A stretch of DNA of 64,000 nucleotides, from NCBI GenBank assembly GCA_003559765.1, contig PWKH01000184.1:12857-76856 (forward strand). Reading direction: 5' to 3'. The notes below the pieces were generated by a model. That model did no database searches and was not told the DNA's origin. It worked only from the letters and a program-made list of their open reading frames with translations. This DNA comes from Spirochaetaceae bacterium. Lineage in GTDB: Bacteria; Spirochaetota; Spirochaetia; PWKH01. Positions 571 through 62,048 of the stretch are shown piece after piece. The first letter of the stretch is position 1; each line of letters starts with the position of its first letter. A program made the translations under genes and the position numbers.

Positions 571-1134
571 ATGACTGAACTGATACCTGAGAAATTCTAT
601 GTCTGTACCGGAGATATCACCAAAATCCAGGCGGATGCGGTGGTCAACGCTGCGAATTCGTCCCTCCTCGGAGGCGGCGGGGTTGACGGTGCGATCCATG
701 CGGCAGGGGGCAGAACCATTCTGGCTGCCTGCAGACAGCTGAGGGAGATCCGGTATCCCGACGGACTTCCTCCAGGCGCCGCAGCGGCAACCACCGCCGG
801 TCGGCTGAGAGCTACCTGGGTGATCCACACCGTAGGTCCGGTATGGAAGGACGGCACCCGCGGAGAGCCTGAGCTGCTGGAATCCGCCTACCGCAGCAGC
901 ACAGCCGAGGCACAGCGGCTCGGCTGCGGCACCGTCGCATTCCCGGCAGTTTCCACGGGGGCCTACGGGTTTCCGAAGAAACTGGCTGCAGAGATTGTCT
1001 GGAGGACTCTGTCGGAAATTATCACCGAAAACCCCGGAAGCATCAGGAAGATATATCTCGTATTCTTCGCCGCAAAGGACGAGGAGCTCTTCGTGAAAAC
1101 CGTCCGGTCACTGGGAGGATACGCATGTCCCTGA
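571..1134 (+). CDS. Macro domain protein (O-acetyl-ADP-ribose deacetylase-like)
   Basis: Motif ITKIQADAVVNAANSSLLGGGGVDGAIHAAGG typical of macro/YmdB family; RBS GGGAGGG before ATG. Confidence 0.85.
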   Translation: MTELIPEKFYVCTGDITKIQADAVVNAANSSLLGGGGVDGAIHAAGGRTILAACRQLREIRYPDGLPPGAAAATTAGRLRATWVIHTVGPVWKDGTRGEPELLESAYRSSTAEAQRLGCGTVAFPAVSTGAYGFPKKLAAEIVWRTLSEIITENPGSIRKIYLVFFAAKDEELFVKTVRSLGGYACP

Positions 1135-2555
1135 ACTGGCGGGAAATCGATTTGATCCTCAATGAACTTCATCTCGAAGGCGCCCGAATCCAGAAGGTGC
1201 AGCAGCCTGATTTCCATACCCTGCTGCTTGAACTCTATCATCCCGAACCGGGACGGTACACCCTGCTGATAGATCTCTCCCAGCAGGGCTGCCGTCTTCA
1301 TCGGCTCCACCACCGCAAGCAGGCAACGATCCGGCAGAAGCATCAACGCTACGTGCAGCTGCTCCGGTCGAAAATCACCGGGGGGAAGATTACCGGAGCT
1401 GAACAGATCCACCAGGACCGGATTGTGCAGTTCATTATAGAACACCGGGGGACGGTCTACTATCTCTATGCCCGTCTCTGGGGGAGCGCAGCGAATATGC
1501 TGCTGTGCAGCCGGGACCATACCATCCTGGATGCCTTCTATCGGAGACCGGGGAAACATGAGCAGTCCGGTGACTCCTATAATCCCCGAAAGGAGGCGCA
1601 GCCGCATCACAAGCAGGAGTTCACTCCCCGGGAACGCAGTGACGGCGAGTCCTTCAATGAGCAGATTTCCCGGGAGTATTATGAGAAGGAGCTTCGGGAG
1701 CATATCCGCCGGCTCAGCACCCAGGCTGAATCCTACCTCGGAGGCAAGGAGTCAAAGCTGCTCTCCCGGCTTTCGGGGATGCAGCGGCAGTCGAGCATTG
1801 AAGGAGGCGAGCGGACCCGGGAGCTTGCTGATCTGCTTGCGGCGAATATTCACCGAATTGAGCCGAAGAGCACCTCAGTGACGGTGGAGGATTTCTATCA
1901 CGGGAACAGGCCTGTTGAAATCCCCCTTGACCCCTCTGTTCCTGCGGGAAAGCAGGTTGAAGCGCTCTATCAGCAGTTCCAGAAGGAGCAGCGGACCCGG
2001 GAGCACCGGGAACAGGAGCTGGGAAATCTCGAGCGGCAGCTTGACGATTTAGCCGCCCAGCGGACCTTTCTGCTGGAGGAGTGGGAGAATCTTGAGGCCC
2101 AGCGGGAGGCCTTAAGCACCTTTATTGCCTCTGAATCCGGAGTTTCCACCGTTACCAGGGCGGGCGAGCGCATCCCGGGACTTCAGTTCCGCTCCGGTCC
2201 CTTCGTGATCCTGGTGGGAAGAACTGCCAGGGAGAACGATGAACTGCTGAGAAACTACACCCGGGGCAATGACTACTGGCTCCACGCCCGGGATTATCCC
2301 GGGGGATATGTGTTTATAAAATTTCTGAAGGGGAAAACCGTTCCACTGGACACCCTCCTGGATGCGGGGAACCTCGCCCTTTACTTTTCCAAAGCAAAGA
2401 AAAGCGGAAAAGCGGATCTCTATGTCGCCCAGGTGAAGCACCTGCGGCGGGCGAAGCACGGGAAGCTGGGCACGGTGATCCCTACCCAGGAAAAGAATCT
2501 TTTTGTCGAGCTTGATCACACACGGCTGAAGCGGCTGCTGGGAGGCACTCCATGA
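1125..2555 (+). CDS. NFACT/DUF814 family protein (RqcH/FbpA-like)
   Basis: C-terminal GPFVILVGRTARENDELL...YWLHARDYPGGYVFIKF resembles NFACT-R/DUF814; coiled-coil middle; start overlaps upstream stop. Confidence 0.65.
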   Translation: MSLNWREIDLILNELHLEGARIQKVQQPDFHTLLLELYHPEPGRYTLLIDLSQQGCRLHRLHHRKQATIRQKHQRYVQLLRSKITGGKITGAEQIHQDRIVQFIIEHRGTVYYLYARLWGSAANMLLCSRDHTILDAFYRRPGKHEQSGDSYNPRKEAQPHHKQEFTPRERSDGESFNEQISREYYEKELREHIRRLSTQAESYLGGKESKLLSRLSGMQRQSSIEGGERTRELADLLAANIHRIEPKSTSVTVEDFYHGNRPVEIPLDPSVPAGKQVEALYQQFQKEQRTREHREQELGNLERQLDDLAAQRTFLLEEWENLEAQREALSTFIASESGVSTVTRAGERIPGLQFRSGPFVILVGRTARENDELLRNYTRGNDYWLHARDYPGGYVFIKFLKGKTVPLDTLLDAGNLALYFSKAKKSGKADLYVAQVKHLRRAKHGKLGTVIPTQEKNLFVELDHTRLKRLLGGTP

Positions 2556-3334
2556 ATCACATTCCCCTCGGACCTGACATGTTCTATCCGGCTGATCCGG
2601 AGATTCTCCGGAGTCTCGTTTCCCGGCAGCTGAACACATATCCCCGGGGAACCTCCCCGGCAGTCATAGTACCCCACGGCCAGTATGAGATCACCGCACC
2701 GGTGCTGGCGGCCGCATGGGCGGCCGCAGCGGATTTTCAGCCCCGGCAGCTGGTTCTGCTGCTTCCGGTCCACACCCCTGAAAGCCCCGAGGAACAGGGA
2801 ATCTATCATCCGGGAATTGAGGTGATCAATTCCCCTCTGGGTTCCCACCGGGTAATCGGGAGTGACCTGGCGCCTATCCGCGGGCGGTATCTTGAGGAGG
2901 AGCCCGCTCTGGATAACTCCCTCCCCTTTATATCCCTGCTCTTCGGTGATGTTCCGGTGCTTCCGCTGTTTGTCAGCGGAAGCACCAGCAGGATCGCAGA
3001 CAGACTTGCAGAACTGCTCAGGCAGTTCCGTCAGGAAAAAACCCTCTTTGCAGTCAGCACAAATCTCACCGGGCTGGCTGACGAGGACATCGCAAACCGG
3101 CAGGCGGAGGAGATCAGCAGGCTGCTGACGGCTCCCGGAGAGAGCAAGCCTCACCTGCCCCTCCTGGAGCCGCTTCGCACCCGGCAGATCGCTCCGTGCA
3201 ATCCCGCAGCTCTGGAAGCGCTGCGCAGAAGCGGAATCACTGATTCTCCTTACCGGCTTGCCGCTCAACAGCCCAGTCAGGACCTGTCGGGTAAGCGGGT
3301 CTGGTACGGAGGATTGTTTCATCCGGAGCGGTAA
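2552..3334 (+). CDS. MEMO1/AmmeMemoRadiSam system protein B-like
   Basis: VIVPHGQYEI...AAAW pattern and about 260 aa size resemble MEMO1 family; ATGA overlap with upstream gene. Confidence 0.45.
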   Translation: MNHIPLGPDMFYPADPEILRSLVSRQLNTYPRGTSPAVIVPHGQYEITAPVLAAAWAAAADFQPRQLVLLLPVHTPESPEEQGIYHPGIEVINSPLGSHRVIGSDLAPIRGRYLEEEPALDNSLPFISLLFGDVPVLPLFVSGSTSRIADRLAELLRQFRQEKTLFAVSTNLTGLADEDIANRQAEEISRLLTAPGESKPHLPLLEPLRTRQIAPCNPAALEALRRSGITDSPYRLAAQQPSQDLSGKRVWYGGLFHPER

Positions 3335-3408
3335 TAAAAACCCGCAGTAGACGATTTCATGAAAATGCATGTATCATACAGTGAGAACAAAAAAAATCGA
3401 GGGCTGAT

Positions 3409-4785
3409 ATGCACGAAAGAACTTTTACCTTTTCCCACGATAACAAAAAAAAGACGGCAATCCCCCTGGCGCCGGATTCAGTTTCCCTTTCCAGGGGCAT
3501 GTTCCAGGGCGGCAAGGTTCCGGGGTATCTGGTCACCGGAGACGGGGTGAGCCCCTGGTACTGGGAAGGCATCCAGACGACAAACGGCATGCGCTGCATC
3601 TACACCGAGACGGAGAACCTGCATCCCCTCTCCATGATATTCGACACCAATCTCTCGGCAGCTACACGGATCGATCTCTATCTGATGCTTCTCACCCGGC
3701 TCGATCAGGCAGCCCGGGAGCTGAAGCATCCCTGGTTTGCAAAGGGATTTCCCCTGTGTTCAATCTGGCTGATTCCGAGTTCAGGAATATTAATTCTGCC
3801 TGAGCCGATTGCAGAGATCATGATGAACTCCGTCTCTGAATCCCGGCGGTATGCTCTCAAGCAGGAGTGGGTCCACCCGAAGGCACCCGCAGGGCAGGAA
3901 TGGCTCTACCAGATGATCACCCTGTTCTACGCCCTGGTTACCAATGTCAGCCCCTTCGCCGATGAGCGCATCAGGGAAGCAGGATATGACCCCCTGCCGC
4001 TGTGGACCCTCCGCCCCTCGGTGAGCGACGATTTTTCCTCAGGCATCATGAGCTGGATTAAGCTGGAGGAGGCCCTGCCCGATGCAGCCGGGCTGGCAGA
4101 ACGGATCCGGGAGGAGAAACCCCGAATTACTGCTACAGCCCCATCAGTCCGGTATGAAGCCGCAGAATCCTGCAGACAGCAGCATCAGCGCAAAGTTGAT
4201 AAACGCTCCAGGCAGCGGGTTTTCTTAAGAAAGCACGGGGTCAAACTGGGGCTGGCCGTCGCGGCGGCGGTCATTATCGGGGCTATGGCGGTAAACTGGA
4301 TCATTGAAGCTGCAAAACCGCCGATTCACGAAGGACTTGAGCCGATTGAGGTGGTGACGCTGTTCTATGACCTCCAGGATGAACTGAGGCTTGATACATA
4401 TCAGCAGCTGTTGACCAAGACAGCAGAAAATGTCCGGGAGAACCAGCTGGTGTATATGCATGTTAGCAATGCCATGCGGCAGGCCTACGGGGGAGGAGAG
4501 TTGCTTCCCGCCAGACAGTGGGTTGCAGACGGGAAGCCGGATCTTCCTCCTGAAACTGCCGTGTACGGCATTACGGATCTGGAAATTGAGCAGATCGGCG
4601 AGCTGGAATTCACAGCTGAGTTCATTCTCTGGCATCCCGATTCCCCGCCTGATGAGGTGACTGAGCCGGAGCATGCCCTGGTGACAGGCATCCAGTTTTT
4701 CGAGCAGCTGCAGCTGGAGGACCACGGATCCTACTACATGATCAGCCGCATCAGTGTTCTTGACCAGGAGCCAGTGATCGAATAG
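3409..4785 (+). CDS. Hypothetical protein with one central transmembrane helix
   Basis: 458-aa ORF with coding-like composition; hydrophobic helix LGLAVAAAVIIGAMAVNWII; no family recognised. Confidence 0.45.
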   Translation: MHERTFTFSHDNKKKTAIPLAPDSVSLSRGMFQGGKVPGYLVTGDGVSPWYWEGIQTTNGMRCIYTETENLHPLSMIFDTNLSAATRIDLYLMLLTRLDQAARELKHPWFAKGFPLCSIWLIPSSGILILPEPIAEIMMNSVSESRRYALKQEWVHPKAPAGQEWLYQMITLFYALVTNVSPFADERIREAGYDPLPLWTLRPSVSDDFSSGIMSWIKLEEALPDAAGLAERIREEKPRITATAPSVRYEAAESCRQQHQRKVDKRSRQRVFLRKHGVKLGLAVAAAVIIGAMAVNWIIEAAKPPIHEGLEPIEVVTLFYDLQDELRLDTYQQLLTKTAENVRENQLVYMHVSNAMRQAYGGGELLPARQWVADGKPDLPPETAVYGITDLEIEQIGELEFTAEFILWHPDSPPDEVTEPEHALVTGIQFFEQLQLEDHGSYYMISRISVLDQEPVIE

Positions 4786-10589: not shown

Positions 10590-11684
10590 CTAGAAGACAA
10601 ACCCTGCTGAGATACCGAAGCGGGGTTCATCCTTTTCGTCAGTGAAGAGCTCCTTGGCAGGCATCGTATAGGAAGCCTGGAGCGACAGTGCGGTAATCTC
10701 CAGCCCGGCACCTACAGTGACGGTTCCCTGGGAGGGGTTGATCGCCCCGAACATCAGATCCTGTATTCTCGGCATATGCTCTTTGTATCCTGCCCGCAGT
10801 ACGATGCGATCGCTGTCGGTAAAGTATATCCCGGATTCAACGCCCATGCGCAGCATCCGGTGATCGTCGCAGCCGATATGATCAACGTCCAGAGCACCGA
10901 GAAACCGGAGGATATTCCTTCGTCCGTACCGGTCCAGCCGGGGATTCCTGACGGAAACTCCCACATAGATATCCTTCAGCAGGTCCTCCAGGACCGGAAG
11001 GTCCTGGTGCTGGGACCACGCCATGACATCAAGGATTTCATCGTGGTGGGCGCCAAGGGCAAAAATACCAGTGTCGAAGAGCAGTCCTGCCCGAAGCAGG
11101 ACCGATTCTCCCTCTTCATGGTTATTCCCGTTGTAGTCATTCAGAAACACCTGCTGAAAGAAATCGGCAAAAAAATCACTCTGCCCCGGGTCCGATATGT
11201 TCACATTTGAGGCTTCAGTAATCTTTGATGCGTGGATTGCTGCCCCGGCGGAAAACATCCCCAGGTTCACCCCGAATCCCAGATCAACATTGTTGATCTT
11301 CGATATGGTGTATATCCGGTCCTCGTCGTCACCGCCGTTCTCCAGGTTGAGGTCATAGATTGAGGAAATGCTTATTCCCCATCCCGAGCCGGTAAAGAAA
11401 AACTGGGGCATCACGATCGGCTCATAAAACTGGGCTCCGGAGGACTGATGCAGGTCCGTATAATGGATCATCGTTCCGATGGTACCGGTCTGCAGCATTC
11501 CCAGGCCGGCGGGGTTGCGGAACAGCGTATTGTGATCATTCGCTACAGCGGTATATGCTCCGGCCATTCCGGCAAGGCGCATGTCTCCAATATACCCGTC
11601 GGTCTGATGGGCGGCAAAAGCCCCCGAAGCGGTATATATATATATGATAATAATAAGTGTTACGGTCTTTCTCAATGCGGACAA
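10590..11684 (-). CDS. Putative outer-membrane beta-barrel protein
   Basis: Signal peptide LIIIIYIYTASGAFAA, alternating beta-strand pattern, C-terminal Phe (GFVF); TTG start with AGGAGA RBS. Confidence 0.45.
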   Translation of the reverse strand: MSALRKTVTLIIIIYIYTASGAFAAHQTDGYIGDMRLAGMAGAYTAVANDHNTLFRNPAGLGMLQTGTIGTMIHYTDLHQSSGAQFYEPIVMPQFFFTGSGWGISISSIYDLNLENGGDDEDRIYTISKINNVDLGFGVNLGMFSAGAAIHASKITEASNVNISDPGQSDFFADFFQQVFLNDYNGNNHEEGESVLLRAGLLFDTGIFALGAHHDEILDVMAWSQHQDLPVLEDLLKDIYVGVSVRNPRLDRYGRRNILRFLGALDVDHIGCDDHRMLRMGVESGIYFTDSDRIVLRAGYKEHMPRIQDLMFGAINPSQGTVTVGAGLEITALSLQASYTMPAKELFTDEKDEPRFGISAGFVF

Positions 11685-11772: not shown

Positions 11773-12741
11773 TCAGCGGCTTCTGCCGGTAAGCCGATCC
11801 AGCAGCCGCCCCAGCATAACTGAGGCCTCACCTGCAGGAAGCCGGCTCAGCTCCCGACGGGCTCTCCGGTGGTAAGCCTCAGCGATCGACTCGGCCTCTG
11901 CCGGCCCGCCCAGCCTCAGCACCATATCGCAGGCTTCATCCGCACGTACCGGATGACTCTTGAGCAGCTGCGCCAGTGCTCCCGAGGAATCGTTCTGCAG
12001 AGCGCACAGCAGCGGAAGGGTCGCAATCCCTGCCTGGAGGTCCCGAGCAGTCTCCTTTCCGAGATGCCGCTCATCTCCCCGATAGTCCAGGATGTCGTCC
12101 TGGATCTGAAAGGCCATGCCGAGGGTGTAGCCGAATCGCGACAGACGATGCTGCTGCAGCCGGCTCAGATTGGATGAAGCGGCCCCGAGATAACAGCTGA
12201 GGGAAAACAGCGCGGCGGTCTTCCCGCCGATGCGGCGGAGATAATGGCCGATGGATATGGAGAAATCTCCCATTTCCCCGTCCTGGTCAATCTCGCTTTC
12301 GCACAGCCTCCCGATCCGGTCTGAAACCACCTGCGGGCGGATCCGGTCGGCAGGGACGCTGGAAAACAGCGAGAAGGCCTTGGCCATCAGATAGTCCCCG
12401 GCAACCACCGCTTTTCGGTTGCCGATTCTGCTGTGAAGAGTTGACTCTCCCCTCCTCAGGGGGGCCTCATCAATGATGTCGTCATGAATTAATGACGCCG
12501 TATGGATCAGTTCCACTCCGGCGGCCAGATCCGCAGTTTCATCTTCATCAGCAGCGGCCCCTTCTGCCCGTGAGGATAACAGCACACAGGCAGGCCGCAG
12601 CATTTTTCCCTGCTGCGTAAGCAGCTGCTGGAGATAGGGCCGTATAAATCCCCTGGCTCCGGAGACTGTCTGCTCGATGCGTGACTGCACCTGCTCAAGT
12701 CCCCGGGAGACAAGGGGTTCATCCTTCCAGAAATTGTTCAC
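11773..12741 (-). CDS. Polyprenyl diphosphate synthase (trans-isoprenyl diphosphate synthase, IspB/HepT-like)
   Basis: First and second Asp-rich motifs LIHDDIIDEAPLRRG and FQIQDDILDY. Confidence 0.85.
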   Translation of the reverse strand: MNNFWKDEPLVSRGLEQVQSRIEQTVSGARGFIRPYLQQLLTQQGKMLRPACVLLSSRAEGAAADEDETADLAAGVELIHTASLIHDDIIDEAPLRRGESTLHSRIGNRKAVVAGDYLMAKAFSLFSSVPADRIRPQVVSDRIGRLCESEIDQDGEMGDFSISIGHYLRRIGGKTAALFSLSCYLGAASSNLSRLQQHRLSRFGYTLGMAFQIQDDILDYRGDERHLGKETARDLQAGIATLPLLCALQNDSSGALAQLLKSHPVRADEACDMVLRLGGPAEAESIAEAYHRRARRELSRLPAGEASVMLGRLLDRLTGRSR

Positions 12742-12755
12742 CGGTGGTTCCGTCC

Positions 12756-14687
12756 TTATTGCTTTTTCCTCCGCCTGATCACCGGTTCATCCAGATAGAG
12801 ATGGGTCTTCTTCGCCAGGGAACATCTGTTCCAGAGCTTCTTGATCCACGGCATCACCCAGTGATCCAGACCAAAGGCCTTACCGGCACCGCCGAGCATT
12901 ACGATCGACACAGCAATATACCACAGTATCTCCTGGCTTGCCAGTGCTCCCATCAGCAGCATCACCGACAGGGCAATTGATGCAATTGCAGCGGGAAAGG
13001 TAAACAGTCCAACCAGAAAGGCGAGACCGAGGCCAATTTCTCCGAGCACAATGCTCAGCTGGAACAGGTAGGGAGCCTGGGCAACGAAGGTCTCATTGAC
13101 CCACTGGAACAGCGCCGTCGGTTCGTCCAGAAGCGGCGGTGCAAATTCAGCGACAGCCTCCTCGGCCGCGGCCTCTCCGTTTTCAGCCGCCGCCTCCTCC
13201 CAGGGAGTTGCACTGGTGCCTGCACTGACCGCTTCTGCAGTCTCCTCGCCGTTGCCGCCGTTTTCCCACGGGGTAGCCCCGGTGCCGTCATCGCCCCAGT
13301 AGACGTAGCTTCCGGTGGTGTCGGTCAGCCAGGCGGGGACCTTCTTCAGACCTTCAACCAGCCACATCGCCCCGAGGAACATCCGCAGAAACGTCATCCA
13401 GTAGGAGGCAAGTTTCTCCGCAGCCAGTCCCCGTATAAAGGAGCGTTTGTCCTTGATGTCGAATATTTCGTGCTTCAGGTACCGGGCCCATCCGTTGAAC
13501 CCGCAGACGGTATGCTGATAGTACATATTTATCAGATGCTTCAGTCCCATGGCGAAAAAGCCGGACATGGATACGCCCATGGTATGAGAGACGCCGTATT
13601 TCCCGCCGATGGAGACCATGTATCCGTGAAAGTTCGACTGAAACGGTTTCGGCTCCTTGGCAGAGCAGGAGAGCTCCCGGCAGATTTTGTAGATGATCCC
13701 GTCAGCGGCTGTTGCAGCAGTCTGCTCGGCAGCTTCAACAGTCTGCGGGAGGGGCCGTTCTTCCTCCAGAAACCATACGGCGTCTCCGGCAAAGTAGACC
13801 CGATCATCATCGGGGCTCTGCATGTACTCATCGACCCGCTTGCGTCCCATCTTGCCGGTCTCAAGGGGAAGTTTTTCAGCAAATTCGCTGCCCTTGATGC
13901 CGCAGGTCCAGATCACCGTGTCGGCAAGAATCTCCGTTCCGTCCTTAAGGGTGATCTTCCCGTCATCAGCCTGCACGATGAAGGAGTTGAGCTTGATTTC
14001 CACCCCGTTTTTCTCAAGATAGCGCACCGCCTTCTTCCTGGGCTTTTCAGGCCAGGTATTGAGAACCTGTCCGAGTCCTTCCACGGTAATCAGCCGCACT
14101 TCATCGGGATCAACCTTATGCTGCTCGCAGAGAATGGGCACCCATTCAATAAGTTCGCCGATCATCTCAATACCGGTAAAACCGCCGCCGGCGACGACAA
14201 AGGTGAGTTTCTCCTTGCGCCGCACCGGATCCTTCTCAAAGGCCGCGTCGCGCACCATCGTCTCCACATGCTCCCGAATCCGCACTGCGTCCTTGAGACC
14301 CCACAGCGGCAGGGCATGTTCCTGTATCCCGGGAATACCGAAATAGGAAGGCTCAGCCCCGGTTGCAATCATCAGATAATCGTAGGGATAGCTGTCGGTA
14401 TCGGAGGTGAGCACCTGCTTTTCGAAGTCGATATCGGTGATTTCTTCACGGACCACTTCCACGGATGTGCCGGCAAATATCCGGTCATAAGAAATTTTCA
14501 CCGACTCCTCAGGCACCCTGCCCCCGGCAAGTTCATGAAGCTCAGTCATCAGCACATGATGGGGATTTTTATCGATCAAGGTGACGGTCACCTTGTCGCG
14601 CATCTTCTTGAATTTTTTATAAAGCCGTTTCGCCGCATGCACCCCGGCATATCCGCCGCCGAGGATCACAATATTTTTTCTATCCAT
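12756..14687 (-). CDS. ndh: Type II NADH:quinone oxidoreductase (NDH-2) fused to a C-terminal DoxX-like membrane domain
   Basis: N-terminal GGGYAG FAD motif and second Rossmann AGGGFTGIE. After about 400 aa there is an acidic ATPWE-repeat linker, then 3-4 TM helices (LVGLFTFPAAIASIALSVMLLMGALA...). Confidence 0.85.
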   Translation of the reverse strand: MDRKNIVILGGGYAGVHAAKRLYKKFKKMRDKVTVTLIDKNPHHVLMTELHELAGGRVPEESVKISYDRIFAGTSVEVVREEITDIDFEKQVLTSDTDSYPYDYLMIATGAEPSYFGIPGIQEHALPLWGLKDAVRIREHVETMVRDAAFEKDPVRRKEKLTFVVAGGGFTGIEMIGELIEWVPILCEQHKVDPDEVRLITVEGLGQVLNTWPEKPRKKAVRYLEKNGVEIKLNSFIVQADDGKITLKDGTEILADTVIWTCGIKGSEFAEKLPLETGKMGRKRVDEYMQSPDDDRVYFAGDAVWFLEEERPLPQTVEAAEQTAATAADGIIYKICRELSCSAKEPKPFQSNFHGYMVSIGGKYGVSHTMGVSMSGFFAMGLKHLINMYYQHTVCGFNGWARYLKHEIFDIKDKRSFIRGLAAEKLASYWMTFLRMFLGAMWLVEGLKKVPAWLTDTTGSYVYWGDDGTGATPWENGGNGEETAEAVSAGTSATPWEEAAAENGEAAAEEAVAEFAPPLLDEPTALFQWVNETFVAQAPYLFQLSIVLGEIGLGLAFLVGLFTFPAAIASIALSVMLLMGALASQEILWYIAVSIVMLGGAGKAFGLDHWVMPWIKKLWNRCSLAKKTHLYLDEPVIRRRKKQ

Positions 14688-14784
14688 GCTTTACTCCAAA
14701 CAATACTAAACTTGTAATCATTATAAACGTATAGCCCAATAAAACAGTTGTCAAGATGTTTATTTTTCTTCATATTGCTTTTAT

Positions 14785-15882
14785 ATGAAATCAAAGCACT
14801 TTTTCCGAATATTTGTAATTATTCCGTTCATAACTGCTGCATTATTGATCACCGCTTCCTGCGGCAGTTCAGATGCTGAAGATACGGCCTCCCATGAGCC
14901 GGTTGCCGAAAACCACCTTGCTCTCGGCACGGTCTCCAGAATCACCATCTATGATCAGCCGGCAGACCGCGCCCGAGAGATCATTCAGGCGGCCTTTGCC
15001 CGGGTAGATGAAATTGAAGAGGCCATGAGCCTTTATAAACCCGGCAGCGAAGTGGACCGGGTGAATGATCAGGCCGGGAAGCAGGCCGTCGAGATATCCC
15101 GGGAGATCTTTTCAGTCCTTGCCATGGCCAAGGAAGTGGCCGTCTCAAGCGACGGGGCCTTCGACCCCACCGTGGGGGCGTTAGTGACAGCATGGGGTAT
15201 CGGCACCGACAATCCCTCAATACCCGGAACTGAGCAGCTTGATGAGCTGATCAACCTGGTGGACTACTCCCAGCTGGAGCTCACCGATCACAACGGTTCG
15301 CGGTATGAGGCAAAGCTGCTGAAAGAGGGCATGCAGATTGATCTGGGCGGAATAGCCAAGGGGTATGCCGCCGATGAGGTGAAGCGGATCATTACTGAAA
15401 TGGGCTCCTCCAGCGCCTTAGTAAACCTCGGGGGCAACATCATGCTCGTGGGGACGAAGCCCGACGGCACGGACTGGAGAATCGGGGTCCAGGATCCCGG
15501 AAGCGGCAGGGGGGATTATGTCATGATCGTATCCCTCGAGGAGGGCACGGTGGTCACCTCAGGGATTTATGAACGGTTCTTCACCCGGGAGGGTGAGCAT
15601 TTTCACCATATCCTTGATACGAAAACTGGGTTTCCAGCAGAGAATGAGCTGGAAAGCATTACCATCATCGCGGAGAACTCCGCCTTTGCCGATGCCCTTT
15701 CCACTGCCGCCTTCGTGCTGGGACTCGAGCAGGGCCTGCAGTACATGGAAGACATCCCCGAAGCTGAGGCAGTGTTTCTGACGAAGGACAAAAAGATCTA
15801 CTACACTTCGGGAATCGGCTCACCGGGGCTTACCTACCGGATCGTCAGCCAGGACTACGAGGTTATAACAGGGGGGCCGTAG
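14785..15882 (+). CDS. apbE: FAD:protein FMN transferase (ApbE) lipoprotein
   Basis: Lipobox ITASCGS; DLGGIAKGYA ApbE signature; divergent from ndh. Confidence 0.9.
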   Translation: MKSKHFFRIFVIIPFITAALLITASCGSSDAEDTASHEPVAENHLALGTVSRITIYDQPADRAREIIQAAFARVDEIEEAMSLYKPGSEVDRVNDQAGKQAVEISREIFSVLAMAKEVAVSSDGAFDPTVGALVTAWGIGTDNPSIPGTEQLDELINLVDYSQLELTDHNGSRYEAKLLKEGMQIDLGGIAKGYAADEVKRIITEMGSSSALVNLGGNIMLVGTKPDGTDWRIGVQDPGSGRGDYVMIVSLEEGTVVTSGIYERFFTREGEHFHHILDTKTGFPAENELESITIIAENSAFADALSTAAFVLGLEQGLQYMEDIPEAEAVFLTKDKKIYYTSGIGSPGLTYRIVSQDYEVITGGP

Positions 15883-16396
15883 CGTAGATTACCCAGAACG
15901 CCGCAGCAGCTGCGGCGGCGGGAATCCAGCCGACGCTCCCGGCGGCCTGAAACCGGTCCCCAGGATCTCCCCGGTGCTCCTCAAGCTGAAACAGCAGCTC
16001 ATCGAGACGCTGTATGAACTGCTTCGGGTTCACCTTGAGTCCGCTGTTGAGAAACCCTTCATAGTAGGAGAACTGCAGTGAAAGCAGATTCCCAAGCCTT
16101 CCGGGAAACGCCGGGCGCTGGGAAATCATGAACTGGGAGAGGTAGATCAGCGCAATGAGCTTCAGCGAACGGACCAGTCCGATCCGCAGAGCTCCCAGGG
16201 TTATCTCGAATCCCGCAATTTCATAGAGCACCTGTCCGTGGGCCTGAAGCAGGTTCACGGCAGTAATGGTCACGATCATCATGAGGTTTGTCTTTACCCT
16301 GATTCTGCCTCCCTGCAGCAGTCTGATGATGATCAGCAGCCCCAGCTGCAGCAGCAGCGGCAGGAGATCAAACTGAAACACCAGAGCCGGCAGCAT
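15863..16396 (-). CDS. Hypothetical Leu-rich polytopic membrane protein (possible transporter component)
   Basis: ORF immediately downstream of Gx-transporter-like gene on same strand; several hydrophobic helices; start chosen at internal ATG after upstream stop; no family recognised. Confidence 0.35.
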   Translation of the reverse strand: MLPALVFQFDLLPLLLQLGLLIIIRLLQGGRIRVKTNLMMIVTITAVNLLQAHGQVLYEIAGFEITLGALRIGLVRSLKLIALIYLSQFMISQRPAFPGRLGNLLSLQFSYYEGFLNSGLKVNPKQFIQRLDELLFQLEEHRGDPGDRFQAAGSVGWIPAAAAAAAFWVIYATAPLL

Positions 16397-16430
16397 GCAC
16401 AGTCCGGCGATAAGGGGAATATTTCTCCGG

Positions 16431-16976
16431 TCAGTCACGCCGCACCCCCTCCTGTTTTGCCGCAAGCCAGCGGGAACTGAGGACAAACTGCTGAGTAAAG
16501 AGCCCGAGCACTACCGCGGTGATCAGCCCGGTGATGAGAAAGGGGGGAGCAATCAGCCAGGCCCCTTCCCCGAAGAGAAACACCCGGGCAAGAAACAGCT
16601 GAGCCATGTTGCTGGCAAATGCCCCGATAACTGCAATTCCGACGAAGGTCACATGCCTGCCTGCCAGGCGGTAGGCAATCAGCATCATTACCACGCTGGC
16701 GGCACTTCCCCCGAGGGAAAAGAGAAAGACATAGGAGAACAGTGTTCCGTGGATAATTCCCTGGCCGAAGACCTTCAGGAAGGCCAGCAGAGCATACTCC
16801 CGGGTGGTGAGGAAGGTTAGACCGATCATCACCGGAAGATTGGCCAGCCCGATGCGCATAAAGGGCACCGGCTTGGGAATCACATATTCGACAGTTGCCA
16901 GAAACAGGGCAAAGGCCCCCAGCATGGCAATCTCATGGATCCGGACGGCCCGGCCGCTGCTAGAAAGCGACATCAT
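16431..16976 (-). CDS. Gx transporter family protein (Hpre_diP_synt_I-like membrane protein)
   Basis: Pattern PKPVPFMRIGLANLPVM...SLGGSAAS...GAFASNMAQL matches Gx/heptaprenyl-diphosphate-synthase-component-I-like family. Confidence 0.65.
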   Translation of the reverse strand: MMSLSSSGRAVRIHEIAMLGAFALFLATVEYVIPKPVPFMRIGLANLPVMIGLTFLTTREYALLAFLKVFGQGIIHGTLFSYVFLFSLGGSAASVVMMLIAYRLAGRHVTFVGIAVIGAFASNMAQLFLARVFLFGEGAWLIAPPFLITGLITAVVLGLFTQQFVLSSRWLAAKQEGVRRD

Positions 16977-17337
16977 CCACCTCCCCGTCCTCAGGCAGTG
17001 CTCCCTCTATTCTTACGAATACATCATTGGGCAGACAGATGATCCACTGTCCGGTACGCTGGATTTTTCCGGTGGAGACGCAGATTTTATTGGTGCAGGG
17101 GGAATCGGGTATATGGACATGCCCGTCTTCGATCACCACCTCAGTATGTCCCAGAGGTCCTGGAATAAAAAGCTGATCATTCTGGTCGACGGGATAGATC
17201 CACTGCCTTCCCGCAGCGTCGATTCTCACCAGGGCGGCATCTGACCCGTTGCGGTAAATCTGGAAGGACATGACGCCGATGATCACTGCTGCAGCTATGA
17301 GGATCACCGCATCGGCACGTTTCATGATCTGCTTCAT
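16960..17337 (-). CDS. NusG domain II-containing membrane-anchored protein
   Basis: N-terminal TM then CxxxxC...IICLPN pattern typical of NusG_II (PF07009-like) small proteins. Confidence 0.65.
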   Translation of the reverse strand: MKQIMKRADAVILIAAAVIIGVMSFQIYRNGSDAALVRIDAAGRQWIYPVDQNDQLFIPGPLGHTEVVIEDGHVHIPDSPCTNKICVSTGKIQRTGQWIICLPNDVFVRIEGALPEDGEVDDVAF

Positions 17338-17418
17338 GGGAGGGACTATAGCACAAAAACATTTGGTGGGAAAAGCCTGATTTCTATAAGGAATTATCCT
17401 TATTTAAAAAAACAGATA

Positions 17419-17447
17419 TTGCCTTACTCATTTGATAACCTTATACT
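17419..17447 (+). promoter_or_regulatory. Sigma70-like promoter TTGCCT-17-TATACT upstream of FMN-binding lipoprotein gene
   Basis: -35 at 17419-17424 and -10 at 17442-17447, AT-rich region, RBS AGGAGG before ATG 17478. Confidence 0.35.
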
Positions 17448-17477
17448 GTACCAAAAGAATATATATTAGGAGGAAAT

Positions 17478-18725
17478 ATGAAGAAACTAGCCGTATTGGG
17501 GATAATTATGCTTGCCGCATTTGCTCTGATCAGCTGCGGTCAGGAGGAAGAACCTGCAGCAGCACAGGCTCCGGCAGAGGAAGCAGTCGAACCGGCAGCC
17601 GCCCCGAGTGAATCTGAAGACGGTATTTATTTCGCGCAGGAAGATGAATTTTCCGGCAGCGGTTGGAAATATGTGGTGTCCTTTGAGATCGAGAACGGTG
17701 AATTTGTCTGGGCAGACTGGAACGGCGTGCACCGTGACTCCGGCCCCGACAAGAAAACCCTTGACAGGATGGGGCTCTACGGCATGGTGGCCCGCGGAGG
17801 CGCCCTGGCTGAATGGTATGAGCAGGCTGAACTGGTCGAAGCCTACCTGCTGGAGACTCAGGATCCGGCAGATATTCCCTACGGAGATGACGGGAAGACC
17901 GATGCGGTCTCCGGGGTGACTATCACCATCAGCAGTTTTGCGGAACTGGCGCAGCAGGCGCTGGCTGAAGGCCCCGTCGGCCGAGGGCCCTATGAGGACG
18001 GTCTGCATTTTGCAGCCCAGCGGCCCGACGGAGGCTGGACCTACACCGTGGCAATGAACGTGATCAGCGGGTATATCGCAGGGGTGAACTGGAGCGGATT
18101 CAACGAGGACGGACAGGACAAGAAGACGATAGACCGTGCCGGGGAATACCAGATGGTTGAACGGGGCGGCGCCCTGGCTGAATGGTATGAGCAGGCTGAA
18201 CTGGTCGAAGCCTACCTGCTGGAGACTCAGGATCCGGCAGATATTCCCTACGGAGATGACGGCAAGACCGATGCGGTCTCCGGGGTGACCATCACCATCA
18301 GCAGTTTTGCGGAACTGGCCCGGCAGGCCCTTGATGCAGGACCTGCTGCTGATGTGGTCTACGAAGACGGGACCTATTACGCTGAGGCCGATGAGTTCGG
18401 TTCTTCCGGGTGGAAATATTTCGTAGATATCATGGCGGTCAACGGTTTTATCGTCGATGCAGACTGGAACGCAGTCAACGAAGACGGTGAAGACAAAAAA
18501 TCCGTGGATAAGGCCGGCGACTACCAGATGGTTGCCCGAGGGGGAGCAATCGACGAATGGCACGTCCAGGCTCAGCGGGCTGAGGAGCATCTGCTCCACA
18601 CCCAGGATCCCCGGGCCATCGAACTGGACGACAGCGGCAGAACCGATGCCGTCTCCGGGGTGACCATCACCGTCAGCGAGCTGGTCGCTCTGGCCGACAA
18701 GGCTCTTGAGGATGCCCGAAAGTAA
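17478..18725 (+). CDS. Lipoprotein with three tandem FMN-binding (FMN_bind) domains; predicted ApbE flavinylation substrate (PplA-like)
   Basis: Lipobox LISCGQ; three copies of ...DKK..D...G.Y.MV.RGGA..EW......AE..L....DP....DD.G.TDAVSGVTIT[IV]S with the D..SG.T flavinylation motif. Confidence 0.8.
   Translation: MKKLAVLGIIMLAAFALISCGQEEEPAAAQAPAEEAVEPAAAPSESEDGIYFAQEDEFSGSGWKYVVSFEIENGEFVWADWNGVHRDSGPDKKTLDRMGLYGMVARGGALAEWYEQAELVEAYLLETQDPADIPYGDDGKTDAVSGVTITISSFAELAQQALAEGPVGRGPYEDGLHFAAQRPDGGWTYTVAMNVISGYIAGVNWSGFNEDGQDKKTIDRAGEYQMVERGGALAEWYEQAELVEAYLLETQDPADIPYGDDGKTDAVSGVTITISSFAELARQALDAGPAADVVYEDGTYYAEADEFGSSGWKYFVDIMAVNGFIVDADWNAVNEDGEDKKSVDKAGDYQMVARGGAIDEWHVQAQRAEEHLLHTQDPRAIELDDSGRTDAVSGVTITVSELVALADKALEDARK
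17799..17950 (+). repeat. Intragenic direct repeat copy 1 (152 nt, near-identical to 18168-18319)
   Basis: ggcgccctggctgaatggtatgagcaggctgaactggtcgaagcc... repeated with 2 mismatches, offset 369 nt (one domain). Confidence 0.8.
18168..18319 (+). repeat. Intragenic direct repeat copy 2
   Basis: See copy 1; differs only at gacgggaag/gacggcaag and gtgactatc/gtgaccatc. Confidence 0.8.
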
Positions 18726-18749
18726 CATTCTGCTCACCAAGCAGTATCA

Positions 18750-18780
18750 GCAGCCGGCGTAACGCCGGCTGCTTTTTCTT
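18750..18780 (+). terminator. Rho-independent terminator (gcagccggcg-taa-cgccggctgc + TTTTT)
   Basis: Perfect 10-bp GC stem, 3-nt loop, T-run, 25 nt after stop of FMN-binding lipoprotein. Confidence 0.7.
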
Positions 18781-18815
18781 GACGAAACCCTCTGAATCAT
18801 CCATGATGAACCGGT

Positions 18816-19853
18816 ATGTTTTGGCGACGGAGAAAAAAGCGGACAGTTTCCATCCTCTCTATCGACGGCGGCGGGATCCGGGGAATCATCCCAATCACCG
18901 TTCTGCTTGCTCTCCAGCGGGAGCTTGCCCGCTTCGATATTGATGATCCCCTGCACACCTGCTTCGACCTGATCGCCGGCACCTCAACGGGAGGTCTGAT
19001 CTCTCTCGGTCTGGCCGCCCCGGCAGAGCCTGCAGGAACTGATCCGGAATCAGGCAGGAGCAGCCCCCTGCTTCCAGCGATGACTTTGGAATATATTCTC
19101 TCCCTGTACGAACAGCGCAGCAAAGAAATATTCTCCAAGGGATCCCTCGGACAGCTGAGATCTCTCGGACAGATGTTTCTGGAAAAATACGATGAGGAGT
19201 CCCTGGTAAGGCTGCTGCAGGAGGTCTTTGGAACCTTGAGCATGTCAGATGCGATGGTTCCCCTGGCGATAACTTCCTATGAATGTCTCCATGGAGAGCC
19301 CTTCCTGTTCACCTCCTACGATCCGGCTCCCTATCTGATGTGGGAGGTCGGCAGAGCCACCACCGCAGCCCCCTCCTATTTCCCCCCTGCCTTTATAAAC
19401 TCCCCCAGGACCGGGAAAAAGCTGTGCTTCATCGACGGCGGGGTGGCGGCAAACAATCCGGCGCTCTACGGCTATCTGGAAGCCCGCAGGCTCTATCCCG
19501 AGGCGGAGCAGTTCAGCATTTTCTCTATCGGTACGGCGGGCAGCCGCTTTTCCCTGCCCCTCCAGGGACTGCAGCGGATGGGCCTGATCGACTGGATTTC
19601 TCCCTCAAAAGGAGTGCCGCTGTTCCATGTCTATACCTCCGGCCAGTACCATACCGCTGAACGGGTGCTCAACACCCTGCCGGATGTGCAGTACTACCGG
19701 ATCGCCGGGAACACCGGAGACCGCTCCATTCCCATGGACGATGTGAGCAGCAGCAACATCATGAAGCTCAAACGGGTGGCCAACTATATCTGCGAGACCC
19801 ATCTGGAGGTAATCCGGGAATACTGCCGGTCAGTCATCCTGCCGAGGAAGTAG
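18816..19853 (+). CDS. Patatin-like phospholipase
   Basis: GGGIRG oxyanion motif and GTSTGG serine hydrolase motif, DGG near C-terminal half. Confidence 0.8.
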
Positions 19854-45234: not shown

Positions 45235-45915
45235 ATGTTCATGCTTGAAGCAATACTCACCCAGCTTGCACCGGCGTCGGTTGTGCCCTTTGATCTGCAG
45301 GACCGTCAGGCGGTTGTGTTTGATTTCACTGAATCCAGCGAAGCTGTGCAGAGCATAGATCCCGCTGAAACCTCGAAATTCACGGAATTTATCGAGGGAG
45401 AGCTCAGCAGATGCTGCGCTGAGTTCGGAGTCGGCAGATATAACGAGGATCGGCTGATCTACCGCAAAAGCTCCCTGTTTGCAGGCAGTGAACCCCGGAG
45501 CATTCATCTCGGTATCGACATCCTCGCCCCGGCGGGCACTGCGGTATGCGCCCCGTGCGACGGCAGAGTGCACAGTTTTCAGGACAATCGGGGCTTCGGG
45601 GACTACGGCCCGACAATCATCCTGGAACATACCCAGGGAGGGTTCACCTGGTACACACTCTACGGTCATCTCTCCCGGGAGTCTCTGACACAGCTGGAGG
45701 AAGGGAAAGCAATTGCCGCAGGCAGTGAATTCGCCCGCTTCGGCAGCGAACAGGAGAACGGCCGATGGCCTCCGCATCTGCATTTTCAGATCATCAGGGA
45801 CCTGGAGGGCAGACGGGGGGATTATCCCGGGGTGTGCGCTGCCTCTCAGCGGAGCTGGTATCTGAAGAACTGCCCGGACCCGCAGCTGCTGCTGAACATC
45901 AGATCCCTCGATTAG
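45235..45915 (+). CDS. Peptidase M23 family protein (no signal peptide)
   Basis: HLGIDI.APAGTAV.AP.DG...GDYGPTIILEH...YGHL...PHLHFQI M23 motifs. Confidence 0.7.
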   Translation: MFMLEAILTQLAPASVVPFDLQDRQAVVFDFTESSEAVQSIDPAETSKFTEFIEGELSRCCAEFGVGRYNEDRLIYRKSSLFAGSEPRSIHLGIDILAPAGTAVCAPCDGRVHSFQDNRGFGDYGPTIILEHTQGGFTWYTLYGHLSRESLTQLEEGKAIAAGSEFARFGSEQENGRWPPHLHFQIIRDLEGRRGDYPGVCAASQRSWYLKNCPDPQLLLNIRSLD

Positions 45916-48368
45916 GCTCTGATGAAAAACTCACGGTTCGTCGCCACGGTCATTCCCTCAACCGGGATGACCGGACATCCGTCCTCATCGATTTCCACGG
46001 TTTCTGGCCACTGAAAATCCTCCTGCATGGATGCAAAGAGGCTGAAATCACAGCCGCGGAGCTTCACATGCACCCGTTCTGGTCCGCTTCGGACGATGAC
46101 AGCGGTCAGGTTAAAGTCCGCGTCCCCCAGGGCCGTCCTGATCACATACAGGGGCACCTCCCGTCCGCTCTGATGCCTCCGCAGATGGGTGGCAATGGTG
46201 ATCACCGTCGAGGCGTCCACCGGACGGCTGCGGTTCCACCACTGCTGCACAGGCATGCCGGCAGCATAGAGACTGAACAGCTCAATGCCGATCTGGCGGC
46301 TGTAGTAGCATATCAGCTTCATCTCCTCCTCATGGTCATTGATTCCCGATAGCAGCAGCAGGTTGCAGTAGACTGTTACTCCCGCCGAGGAGAACCGGCG
46401 GATGATCTCACTGTGGAGGGCGCTGAATTCGCTGGAGTGGATGAACTGGGTCTCCATTTCCACCCGAAAAGGATTTGCCGCCCGGAGCTGATTGAGCTTT
46501 ACAATGCGGCCGATCAGCTCTTCATCGAACAGCTGGGGCTCATAGGCAAGTTTCAGACTCCGCAGCCGCAGAGCCTGGACATGGGGGATTGCCCGGAGGC
46601 GGCGGGCAATCATCTCAATTTGATCCAGATGATCAATGCAGTCATCCCTGGCGGCCAGTACCACTTCCCTGATATCCTCACATCCCTTGATGCAGGCAAG
46701 CATCTCCTTCAGGCGTTCATATTCCCCGAGATCCAGTTCAACCCGGGTCTTATGGATTCTGCACACCCCCGCTGTCCCGGTTTCAACGATGCTCTGGGTC
46801 ACCCGCTGGTCCTCCAGCACCTTCAGCTGCACCTCCCGCAGGTCCGCCATATTCAGATCGAAGGGCTGTCCGTCCTGCATGTCGAAATGGCCCAGAAAGA
46901 GCCGGTCATCGCCGATATCCGCCATGAAACGGCTTAAGATGCTGCCGTCATGGTGCTCCCGGGCTTCCTGCAGTACAAAGGAGGGAACAAACTCCTTGAA
47001 ATACTGGTCCGTATAGGGGGTCCGCAGCCAGATGTATCTGGGATCCTGGGCATCCGGCTCGACTGCCCATCCGCTGACGTTCCAGTCGATTTTGCCCACC
47101 TTGCTGGCGGTGCAGAGTATCGGCATAGCCCGGTCGCTGAGATGAGACCGCAGATATGCCGCCGCTCTATGGCCGTCAGACAGGGGCGTCCAGTACACTT
47201 TGTTCCCCTGGATGGGACTGCAGGGAATATAGATGTAATGAATCTCCGAACCCGCCGCCCGGAGCTCCCGGTACAGCTGGGCCAGTTCCTCTCCGGAGTC
47301 GTTGCAGTCCTTCAGAAAGGGTGTCTGGGTATACACGCCGATCCCGCTTTTCACCAGTTCGCTGATGATCTCAAGGCTGTAGACAGAAATTTCATCAGGG
47401 TGGATGAAATGGGTGGCAATTTCAATACGCTTGTTCCGCTGCTGCAGCTCCCGGTTTTTCCCGGTAAGATACTTCAGCCAGAAGGAGTCCTTGTTGGAGA
47501 ACAGCTGAGGATAATAGGAGATGCACCGGGATGCAATCCGGATGGTCTGGATGTGTTCAATCTGCTGCAGCCCTTCAACGGCACAGGTGAGGGTCTCCCG
47601 GTTCAGCAGGGGCTCTACCCCGGTAAGCACGATCTCCTTGATCCGGGGAGAATCGGCGATATGATCAAGGGCCCGGCGGACGTCCTCAATGGTCGGTGCC
47701 GGCTGGTTCCTGCAGTCCTTGTGCTTGCGGAAGCAGAATCTGCAGTATACCGGACAGCTCATATGGAGCACGAATATCGGCCGGTTCTGGTACATCTGCT
47801 CAAGCACTCCCTGGTGGAACTGACCGACCCAGGTATTCTTCAGCCCCGTCGAGTCGAGCTCCTCTGCAAATGGCATGAACTGGTATCCCACAGCCCAGGA
47901 GATCCTCGCCTGCCGCACGGTGTGCATCGAAAGTCTCACCGGATAGGTGTCCAGCACCAGCTGAAGATCATCCCGCCGGTCCTCGGGAACCCTGGTGTTT
48001 GCCGCCGCCTCGTACTGGTCAACCGTGGTGATGCTCATCAGTTCATCCCCGGGAATCACCGCCTCAAGGATCGGAAGCAGCAGCCGCTTCGGCAGAGCAA
48101 CGCCGCTGACCGCAACGTCCCGGGGCTGCTCATGGCTGGACTGCTCCAGCTGCTGCAGAACTGATTCGAAGAATTCCCGGTCAGTGCAGCCGCAGGAGCG
48201 CAGCAGGGCGGCAAAGGGCTCATCCCCCGCGGTCATTTCGGCAAACTCCCGCCCCAGATATGAGGATGCGCCGAATCGGCGCAGAAAGTCATCCAGCCGA
48301 CCGGCCAGCTCTCCGACGGAAATCTCAGTGCCGCCTAACCGGTCATGAAACGTCAGCATATCCTGCAT
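45912..48368 (-). CDS. KamA-family radical SAM protein with internal tandem duplication (lysine-2,3-aminomutase-like, 818 aa)
   Basis: CPVYCRFCFRKH (CxxxCxxC KamA-type) in first half; second half repeats the KamA barrel-like segments (VQALRLRSLKLAYEPQLF..., AGVTVYCNLLLLSGIND...) without the Cys triad. Confidence 0.75.
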   Translation of the reverse strand: MQDMLTFHDRLGGTEISVGELAGRLDDFLRRFGASSYLGREFAEMTAGDEPFAALLRSCGCTDREFFESVLQQLEQSSHEQPRDVAVSGVALPKRLLLPILEAVIPGDELMSITTVDQYEAAANTRVPEDRRDDLQLVLDTYPVRLSMHTVRQARISWAVGYQFMPFAEELDSTGLKNTWVGQFHQGVLEQMYQNRPIFVLHMSCPVYCRFCFRKHKDCRNQPAPTIEDVRRALDHIADSPRIKEIVLTGVEPLLNRETLTCAVEGLQQIEHIQTIRIASRCISYYPQLFSNKDSFWLKYLTGKNRELQQRNKRIEIATHFIHPDEISVYSLEIISELVKSGIGVYTQTPFLKDCNDSGEELAQLYRELRAAGSEIHYIYIPCSPIQGNKVYWTPLSDGHRAAAYLRSHLSDRAMPILCTASKVGKIDWNVSGWAVEPDAQDPRYIWLRTPYTDQYFKEFVPSFVLQEAREHHDGSILSRFMADIGDDRLFLGHFDMQDGQPFDLNMADLREVQLKVLEDQRVTQSIVETGTAGVCRIHKTRVELDLGEYERLKEMLACIKGCEDIREVVLAARDDCIDHLDQIEMIARRLRAIPHVQALRLRSLKLAYEPQLFDEELIGRIVKLNQLRAANPFRVEMETQFIHSSEFSALHSEIIRRFSSAGVTVYCNLLLLSGINDHEEEMKLICYYSRQIGIELFSLYAAGMPVQQWWNRSRPVDASTVITIATHLRRHQSGREVPLYVIRTALGDADFNLTAVIVRSGPERVHVKLRGCDFSLFASMQEDFQWPETVEIDEDGCPVIPVEGMTVATNREFFIRA

Positions 48369-52996: not shown

Positions 52997-52998
52997 CT

Positions 52999-54801: not shown

Positions 54802-54909
54802 TCCCTGAATGGATACTGCTCGATGTATTTTTATATTGCATGATGAGTTCATGAGAGTTACACTACTATATGCAAATAGACGGCCGTTACGGCCGAGCGA
54901 GGGGGTTTT

Positions 54910-61896: not shown

Positions 61897-62048
61897 CCAA
61901 AAATAACTTACATGCATACCGTCATACAGGCAATAAAAAATCGTATCCGCTGCCCTGTGCTGTTTTATCTGACCAGGCTGTACCGCTTTTCTCCGTACCC
62001 TGCTATAATCACGTGAATACATATCCTTCATCTGCTGTGAGGTGACCC

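Follow-up and report, generated by a model that had tools for sequence, protein, structure and literature searches.

Seven adjacent genes in a 64,000-nucleotide stretch of the genome of a Spirochaetaceae bacterium (contig PWKH01000184.1, positions 12,857 to 76,856; hereafter, the window, whose own numbering is used throughout) probably encode, judging from their sequences, a Sphaerochaetaceae-like spirochaete homologue of the Listeria-type flavin-based extracytosolic/extracellular electron transfer (FLEET) system. The genes span 11773-18725 in the list of open reading frames (ORFs), which was scanned against Pfam and NCBIfam. All seven ORFs described in an initial annotation of this DNA, made from the sequence alone, are in place, and their family matches agree with that description. 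The features of the locus are as follows (aa, amino acids; nt, nucleotides).

11773-12741, minus strand: polyprenyl diphosphate synthase gene, 322 aa (polyprenyl_synt, 1e-60, 205 bits)
12756-14687, minus strand: ndh2, Ndh2-type NADH:quinone oxidoreductase (NDH-2 with a C-terminal DoxX/DoxD-like domain), 643 aa (Pyr_redox_2, 1e-39, and a weak DoxX match)
14688-14784: divergent intergenic region between ndh2 and apbE, 97-nt gap
14785-15882, plus strand: lipoprotein ApbE gene (FAD:protein FMN transferase, FmnB counterpart), 365 aa (ApbE, 1.2e-91)
15863-16438, minus strand: membrane protein gene without family annotation, 191 aa (longest ORF 15863-16486, 207 aa)
16431-16976, minus strand: eetB homologue, 181 aa (Hpre_diP_synt_I, PF07456, 3.7e-36, full length)
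16960-17337, minus strand: eetA homologue, 125 aa (NusG_II, PF07009, 1.2e-22)
17338-17477: divergent intergenic region separating eetA from the FMN lipoprotein gene, 140-nt gap
17478-18725, plus strand: gene of the PplA-like flavin mononucleotide (FMN) lipoprotein, the carrier, 415 aa (FMN_bind, 46.3 bits)
18749-18773, plus strand: intrinsic-terminator-like hairpin 3' of the carrier gene (11-bp stem with nine G-C pairs, then a T run)

The cut-offs were 22 bits for Pfam FMN_bind, 25.6 for ApbE, 23.6 for DoxX, and 325 for the NCBIfam PplA model (NF041941); lipoboxes were read off the sequence, and membrane segments were taken from hydropathy. The families that the initial annotation had proposed to look for, FMN_bind, ApbE, NusG_II, Hpre_diP_synt_I, and Pyr_redox_2, were all matched, with DoxX just under its cut-off.

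Six genes of the window have counterparts in the Listeria FLEET locus, namely, DmkB, Ndh2, FmnB, EetB, EetA, and PplA (the sources for the genes of Listeria and their roles are PMC8906456 and PMC9973259), and the functional reading given initially, a parts list for Listeria-type flavin-based extracellular electron transfer (EET), holds by homology and synteny. An EET system has been defined as an NDH-2 with a transmembrane helix inside a flavinylation-associated cluster, that is, an NDH-2 of the K03885 type with such a helix, located no more than five genes from a gene for a signal-peptide-bearing or lipidated ApbE or FMN_bind protein (Meheust 2021, PMC8238504). The locus falls under this definition, as ndh2 is adjacent to apbE and lies four genes from the FMN lipoprotein gene.

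The carrier starts with a hydrophobic segment ending in the lipobox LISC and contains three repeats of about 123 aa, with the motif DAVSGVT at residues 142, 265, and 390, and the predicted flavinylation sites are T148, T271, and T396. FMN_bind is its only family match, with the whole protein well over the cut-off, and domain 1 matches a solved, uncharacterised protein (2KZX, 1.4e-38). Thus, the description of the gene product as a lipoprotein with three motif-bearing FMN-binding domains was borne out. Carrier relatives occur in Pleomorphochaeta, a Spirochaetaceae metagenome-assembled genome (MAG), a Peptococcaceae MAG, and several Clostridia, and three-domain orthologues, in Pleomorphochaeta, a Peptococcaceae MAG, and Sphaerochaeta pleomorpha; in the Clostridial two-domain carriers the first domain is degenerate. 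The initial annotation had named a failure of the domains to score as FMN_bind, or a non-conserved Thr, as grounds for doubt; neither was seen, since the whole protein exceeds the cut-off and since each of the 14 domains read in the three- and two-domain relatives has either Thr or Ser as the hydroxyl residue to be modified.

The S. pleomorpha orthologue (CP003155.1, locus L008, 6278-7579, minus strand; 433 aa, 50% identity) has three domains with motifs DDIAGVS, DDIAGVS, and DDIGGAS, and yields no Pfam FMN_bind match at E<=0.001. Hence, surveys based on PF04205 will overlook this carrier subfamily, which sits at the detection edge of PF04205, with the solved 2KZX as the protein nearest to it. 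Carriers escaping Pfam may also explain why a published Sediminispirochaeta neighbourhood, considered below, shows no carrier.

Within the carrier gene of the window, positions 17799-17950 and 18168-18319, encoding the C-terminal halves of domains 1 and 2, differ by two mismatches in about 150 nt; they share a 95-nt identical run and an identical 52-aa block, while the remainder of both domains has diverged. This near-identity looks like the result of recent gene conversion or of partial duplication within the gene.

The ApbE protein (307 bits against the cut-off of 25.6) likewise has an N-terminal hydrophobic segment, followed by a lipobox-like ITASC. Its best solved relatives are Listeria FmnB (7ESA, 1.4e-67) and then Treponema pallidum Ftp (3e-63), in agreement with the initial assignment of an FmnB-like lipoprotein.

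The genes initially described as “Gx-transporter-like” and “NusG_II” are homologues of eetB and eetA, respectively, as Listeria EetB belongs to PF07456 and is ECF-S-like, that is, similar to substrate-binding components of energy-coupling factor (ECF) transporters, and Data Set S1 of the same study gives the label EetA to PF07009 (Rivera-Lugo 2023, PMC9973259). Both matches are full length and over the cut-offs (124.8 bits for EetB and 80.6 bits for EetA). According to genetic evidence in Listeria, the export of flavin adenine dinucleotide (FAD) for the flavinylation of PplA by FmnB requires EetB as well as FmnA, an ECF-T protein (PMC9973259). The EetB homologue of the window would be an ECF-S-like membrane protein and is proposed to be an FAD exporter subunit, and the EetA homologue carries its NusG_II domain on an N-terminal membrane anchor.

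The remaining gene, initially noted as encoding a polytopic membrane protein, is confirmed as such, with a corrected length: its product starts at GTG 16438, overlapping the eetB stop codon (GTGA), and comprises 191 aa, exactly as in the product called by NCBI, whereas the longest ORF would give 207 aa. It has no sequence match in Pfam, NCBIfam, or the Protein Data Bank (PDB). In a profile search of 1.84 billion representatives, 728 relatives passed the threshold of E<=0.001. Among the best 150, about twenty have a length of 380-466 aa and match in their C-terminal half, and all eight of these long relatives that were tested have an N-terminal PF07456 domain, that is, are EetB fusions. The named fusions are annotated as Spirochaetota or Spirochaetales, and one of the fusions sits in a cluster of EetA, the EetB fusion, ApbE, Ndh2, and polyprenyl synthase. 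When the AlphaFold2 model of the 191-aa protein (55-sequence alignment, mean predicted local distance difference test score, pLDDT, 83.6) was searched with Foldseek, the top seven matches were all ECF-T chains (probability 0.94-1.0, E 0.02-0.2); two methods give an ECF-T-like fold. We suggest, with moderate confidence, that the protein is a short, divergent ECF-T-like partner of EetB, which probably takes the place of FmnA as the scaffold of the FAD exporter.

Residues 1-397 of Ndh2 match solved NDH-2 structures (4NWZ, YjlD, and Staphylococcus aureus NDH-2) at 8e-62 to 1e-40, and its C-terminal 244 aa hold the only predicted membrane segments of the protein, at about 540-605. The DoxX/DoxD-like membrane domain occupies approximately residues 425-620 and includes a variable acidic loop (464-517) with 13 Asp or Glu and not a single Lys or Arg. 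Scored alone, the C-terminal domain reaches 22.5 bits with DoxX, just short of the cut-off, and among 58 Ndh2 homologues, DoxX is matched in 36 and DoxD in 16 (E<=0.01). The comparison set here was the Ndh proteins of Clostridial EET clusters, in place of Listeria Ndh2, and the isolated C-terminal domain is similar to them (34% identity over 240 aa, 5e-40). The matches listed include over 100 full-length homologues of the fusion, with 54-75% identity, mostly from Sphaerochaeta and other Sphaerochaetaceae and including S. pleomorpha Grapes. In the AlphaFold2 model, pLDDT is mostly above 85 in the NDH-2 domain and about 60-75 in the C-terminal domain, and the loop is disordered.

The polyprenyl synthase gene shares its strand with ndh2 and follows it downstream after 14 nt. 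Small residues at positions -5/-4 before the first DDxxD motif are a sign of a long-chain product in polyprenyl synthases, and in this protein these positions are occupied by Ala and Ser. By its sequence, it is a DmkB counterpart, probably of the long-chain trans type, which would make the side chain of a quinone. Its best NCBIfam match is HepT, with 214 bits against an equivalog cut-off of 456; as it falls under every NCBIfam equivalog cut-off, no chain length is assigned from these models.

A different set of genes, possibly for quinone synthesis, was observed in S. pleomorpha Grapes (CP003155.1, locus L008, 875-10924), where an NMT1-type ABC transporter, UbiX, UbiA, and UbiD adjoin the three-FMN carrier, ndh2, and polyprenyl synthase genes. 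The UbiX-UbiA-UbiD set is also seen in a published Clostridiaceae EET cluster, and the S. pleomorpha UbiA, UbiD, and UbiX have no tblastn match in the window. This arrangement hints that, to make its dedicated quinone, the lineage imports an aromatic precursor and uses UbiA, UbiD, and UbiX instead of a MenA-type DmkA.

The neighbourhood is conserved in Pleomorphochaeta, which has all seven genes, ordered and oriented as in the window, with only 35-59% protein identity, between flanks unrelated to those of the window; given this level of identity and the unrelated flanks, the grouping is not due to chance. Clostridia and a Spirochaetota MAG likewise retain the gene content. In Anaerovorax and another Clostridium, the polyprenyl synthase gene, eetB, eetA, and ndh2 share one strand, with the carrier gene and apbE on the opposite strand. 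In S. pleomorpha, the carrier gene stands beside ndh2 and the polyprenyl synthase gene, preceded by the genes for UbiD, UbiA, UbiX, and the ABC transporter, and no ApbE or EetAB gene lies within 8 kb of this group. A different combination was seen in the Peptococcaceae MAG (locus L002, 1942-7620), where genes for the three-FMN carrier, ApbE, EetA, and EetB precede those for a 4Fe-4S dicluster protein, whose N-terminus is twin-arginine-like, and for an NrfD-family membrane protein. The contig, of 7.9 kb, has no Ndh2, and the set would be another membrane entry point to a carrier of the same type.

We infer every biochemical step of the following scheme from homology. Cytoplasmic NADH would be oxidised by the Ndh2-type NDH-2, with the DoxX-like domain holding the enzyme at the membrane, and the electrons would pass to a lipophilic isoprenoid quinone whose side chain would be supplied by the adjacent DmkB-like polyprenyl diphosphate synthase. 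The quinol would then reduce the three covalent FMNs of the membrane-anchored periplasmic lipoprotein, which may in turn reduce a periplasmic or external acceptor. For maturation of the carrier, cytoplasmic FAD would be exported by the ECF-S-like EetB with the 191-aa ECF-T-like protein and EetA, and the lipoprotein ApbE would move FMN onto Thr148, Thr271, and Thr396. If active, the system would be a respiratory-like NADH outlet for an otherwise fermentative spirochaete and could explain the Fe(III) reduction reported in Sphaerochaeta, species of which reduce Fe(III) oxides according to a secondary source. A bolder version of this scheme, which we consider unlikely, is a diderm flavin-EET chain, in which a three-flavin lipoprotein, as a periplasmic wire, would allow Sphaerochaeta-like spirochaetes, fermentative and cytochrome-free, to discharge electrons to Fe(III) or flavin shuttles outside the cell. 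The wire would be matured by a dedicated FAD exporter made up of EetB and a miniature ECF-T-like subunit, the latter possibly working without canonical coupling motifs.

Several observations weigh against assignment of the locus to a FLEET system. No DmkA-type UbiA/MenA prenyltransferase or men genes were found among the scanned ORFs of the window, and so the locus does not define the quinone; DmkA may lie elsewhere in the genome. Scored singly, the FMN domains of the carrier reach 18.8, 20.6, and 15.8 bits, all under the Pfam cut-off, and the protein has 75.1 bits with the NCBIfam PplA model against the cut-off of 325; by the NCBI criterion it is PplA-like and not a PplA orthologue. The ECF-T assignment comes from a predicted structure with weak Foldseek E-values and without a sequence-level match; the conserved Arg coupling motif of ECF-T proteins (of the Ala-Arg-Gly type) was sought in the 191-aa family and not recognised, and no ECF ATPase genes were found in the 64-kb window. 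Genes for a PorV/PorQ-family-like barrel protein (10590-11684, minus strand, below the NCBIfam cut-off, adjoining the polyprenyl synthase gene) and an omptin-family protein (60952-62073, minus strand) indicate an outer membrane, hence a diderm host, in which a lipoprotein carrier by itself does not reach an extracellular acceptor.

Finally, the module genes fall into four apparent transcription units. The eetA and eetB genes overlap by 17 nt, and eetB and the 191-aa protein gene, by 8 nt. The other two units are single genes, apbE and the carrier gene, each facing one of the two divergent intergenic regions, and ndh2 and the polyprenyl synthase gene make up the remaining unit; the terminator-like hairpin after the carrier gene is a strong one. 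Promoter-like sites, identified by consensus match only, occur at 14748-14776 (plus strand) in the ndh2/apbE gap, and at 17372-17345 (minus strand), 17419-17447, and 17432-17460 (both plus strand) in the eetA/carrier gap. A functional link among the four units is argued for by their conserved neighbourhood.

The diderm envelope suggested by the outer-membrane protein genes also bears on the destination of the electrons. The same machinery may mainly feed periplasmic flavinylated reductases with soluble acceptors (of the fumarate, urocanate, or acrylate type), serving anaerobic respiration or NAD+ regeneration in the periplasm rather than reduction of minerals or electrodes. In Marispirochaeta, genes for an unannotated membrane protein of about 212 aa, EetB, and EetA adjoin one for an FMN_bind+FAD_binding_2 lipoprotein annotated as urocanate reductase, which makes this role a serious alternative; moreover, flavinylated fumarate and urocanate reductases draw electrons from chain components encoded elsewhere (Meheust 2021, PMC8238504). 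On the other hand, the scan of the window's ORFs turned up no gene for an FAD_binding_2 or other reductase, and the reported Fe(III) oxide reduction by Sphaerochaeta also speaks against it. Taking all this into account, we hold a mainly periplasmic role to be possible, if not the likelier one. By comparison, it is quite unlikely that the module is a ferric reductase for iron assimilation, its flavinylated lipoprotein reducing periplasmic Fe(III) chelates for Fe(II) uptake. Colocalisation of flavinylation genes with iron transporters has been described (Meheust 2021, PMC8238504), and a FeoA-domain protein and FeoB are encoded in the window, but feoAB lie about 34 kb away, separated from the module by housekeeping genes, neither the window nor Pleomorphochaeta has an iron transporter next to the module, and a dedicated NDH-2 with a quinone synthesis gene fits bulk electron disposal better.

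The four transcription units could also mean that two unrelated functions are neighbours by accident, with ApbE, EetAB, and the FMN protein serving general flavoprotein maturation (e.g., of RNF), and NDH-2 and polyprenyl synthase being unconnected to them. This agrees with the colocalisation of eetB with Rnf in many Clostridia (PMC9973259) and with the separation of the carrier–ndh2–polyprenyl synthase group from ApbE and EetAB in S. pleomorpha. Yet in S. pleomorpha the neighbour that the carrier keeps is ndh2 and not ApbE; the scanned ORFs of the window yielded no rnf genes; and the membrane-domain NDH-2, polyprenyl synthase, ApbE, EetA/B, and the FMN lipoprotein recur together in Spirochaetota, Clostridia, and Bacilli, which makes an accidental neighbourhood very improbable. 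The homologue of the Listeria-type FLEET system thus is the reading that we prefer.

Among other genes of the window, a patatin-like phospholipase (18816-19853, plus strand) lies directly downstream of the module and scores 167 bits, against a cut-off of 200, with the CBASS cGAMP-activated lipase model; there is no cyclase gene beside it, and the next gene encodes a PNP_UDP_1 phosphorylase. Membership of the PorV-like gene and the patatin gene in the module was weighed and dismissed, as they are not conserved beside it in Pleomorphochaeta. The region 52151-56373 (plus strand) encodes a nicotianamine-synthase/methyltransferase-like protein fused to a FeoA domain, then FeoB, and then a haem catalase, probably a case of iron uptake adjoining an oxidative-stress enzyme in a probable anaerobic fermenter. 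Three ORFs, 3409-4785 (plus strand, 458 aa), 2516-3370 (minus strand, 284 aa), and 963-1703 (minus strand, 246 aa), have no Pfam family, and an 818-aa protein (45912-48368, minus strand) has a short radical SAM match only.

Compared with the Listeria locus, the gene counterparts anticipated by the initial annotation are present, whereas the arrangement differs: the window has two divergent pairs of units, unlike Enterococcus faecium or Listeria, and no DmkA. The Listeria carrier has two domains and that of the window, three, both being lipoproteins with [S/T]GA[S/T]-like motifs (three times SGVT here). Listeria has the ECF-T protein FmnA, while the window has the 191-aa protein, ECF-T-like in its predicted fold only, and the host is a diderm spirochaete, unlike Listeria.

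The initial annotation had also seen a distinct variant in the combination of the three-domain carrier with the NDH-2::DoxX fusion. This does not hold, as the same gene sets have already been catalogued as EET in two spirochaetes and in Clostridia, and both NDH-2 with DoxX and three-domain carriers are known. The cluster of Sediminispirochaeta bajacaliforniensis, labelled EET (Meheust 2021, Supplementary file 1, PMC8238504), comprises a 206-aa unannotated protein with four transmembrane segments, Hpre_diP_synt_I, a 93-aa protein, lipoprotein ApbE, a 695-aa Ndh (Pyr_redox_2+VKG_Carbox+DoxD), and polyprenyl_synt; unlike the window, its listed neighbourhood shows no FMN_bind gene. An Alkalispirochaetaceae MAG has an EET cluster of polyprenyl_synt, a 648-aa Ndh, an FMN_bind lipoprotein, and NusG_II, and Clostridiaceae UBA701, one of ApbE, 2xFMN_bind, Ndh, NusG_II, Hpre_diP_synt_I, and polyprenyl_synt; E. 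faecium and Clostridia clusters are also labelled EET (PMC8238504). UBA701 and S. pleomorpha carry UbiX-UbiA-UbiD by the cluster, and the window does not. Ndh proteins of 623-626 aa from EET clusters are annotated “Pyr_redox_2 + DoxX” in the same survey, which also lists 2081 proteins with several FMN_bind domains (PMC8238504), and three-domain “beads-on-a-string” models have been shown (Huang et al., 2024). The carrier shares secretion or lipidation and more than one motif-bearing domain with these multi-flavinylated proteins, without any substantial difference (Meheust 2021; Huang et al., 2024; PMC10339131). Accordingly, neither the fusion nor the three-domain carrier is special to this genome, as both recur in homologues, including those of S. 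pleomorpha, and in the tables of Meheust 2021.

The 191-aa protein differs from known ECF-T components (EcfT, CbiQ, and Listeria FmnA): it is about 70 residues shorter than EcfT and, compared with EcfT and CbiQ, has no detectable sequence similarity, no recognised Ala-Arg-Gly-type motif, and no nearby ECF ATPase genes. Only 291 of the genomes with eetB had a recognisable ECF-T gene nearby (PMC9973259), and the ECF-T-like 191-aa family may help account for this low number. We found no dedicated study of a flavin-EET locus in Sphaerochaeta or other spirochaetes in the literature. The locus is an ordinary member of the catalogued Listeria-type flavin EET set, an expected extension of the published surveys rather than a new principle, and its only minor addition is a new annotation: the unnamed membrane gene that spirochaetes carry alongside eetA and eetB probably encodes an ECF-T-like EetB partner in the FAD exporter.

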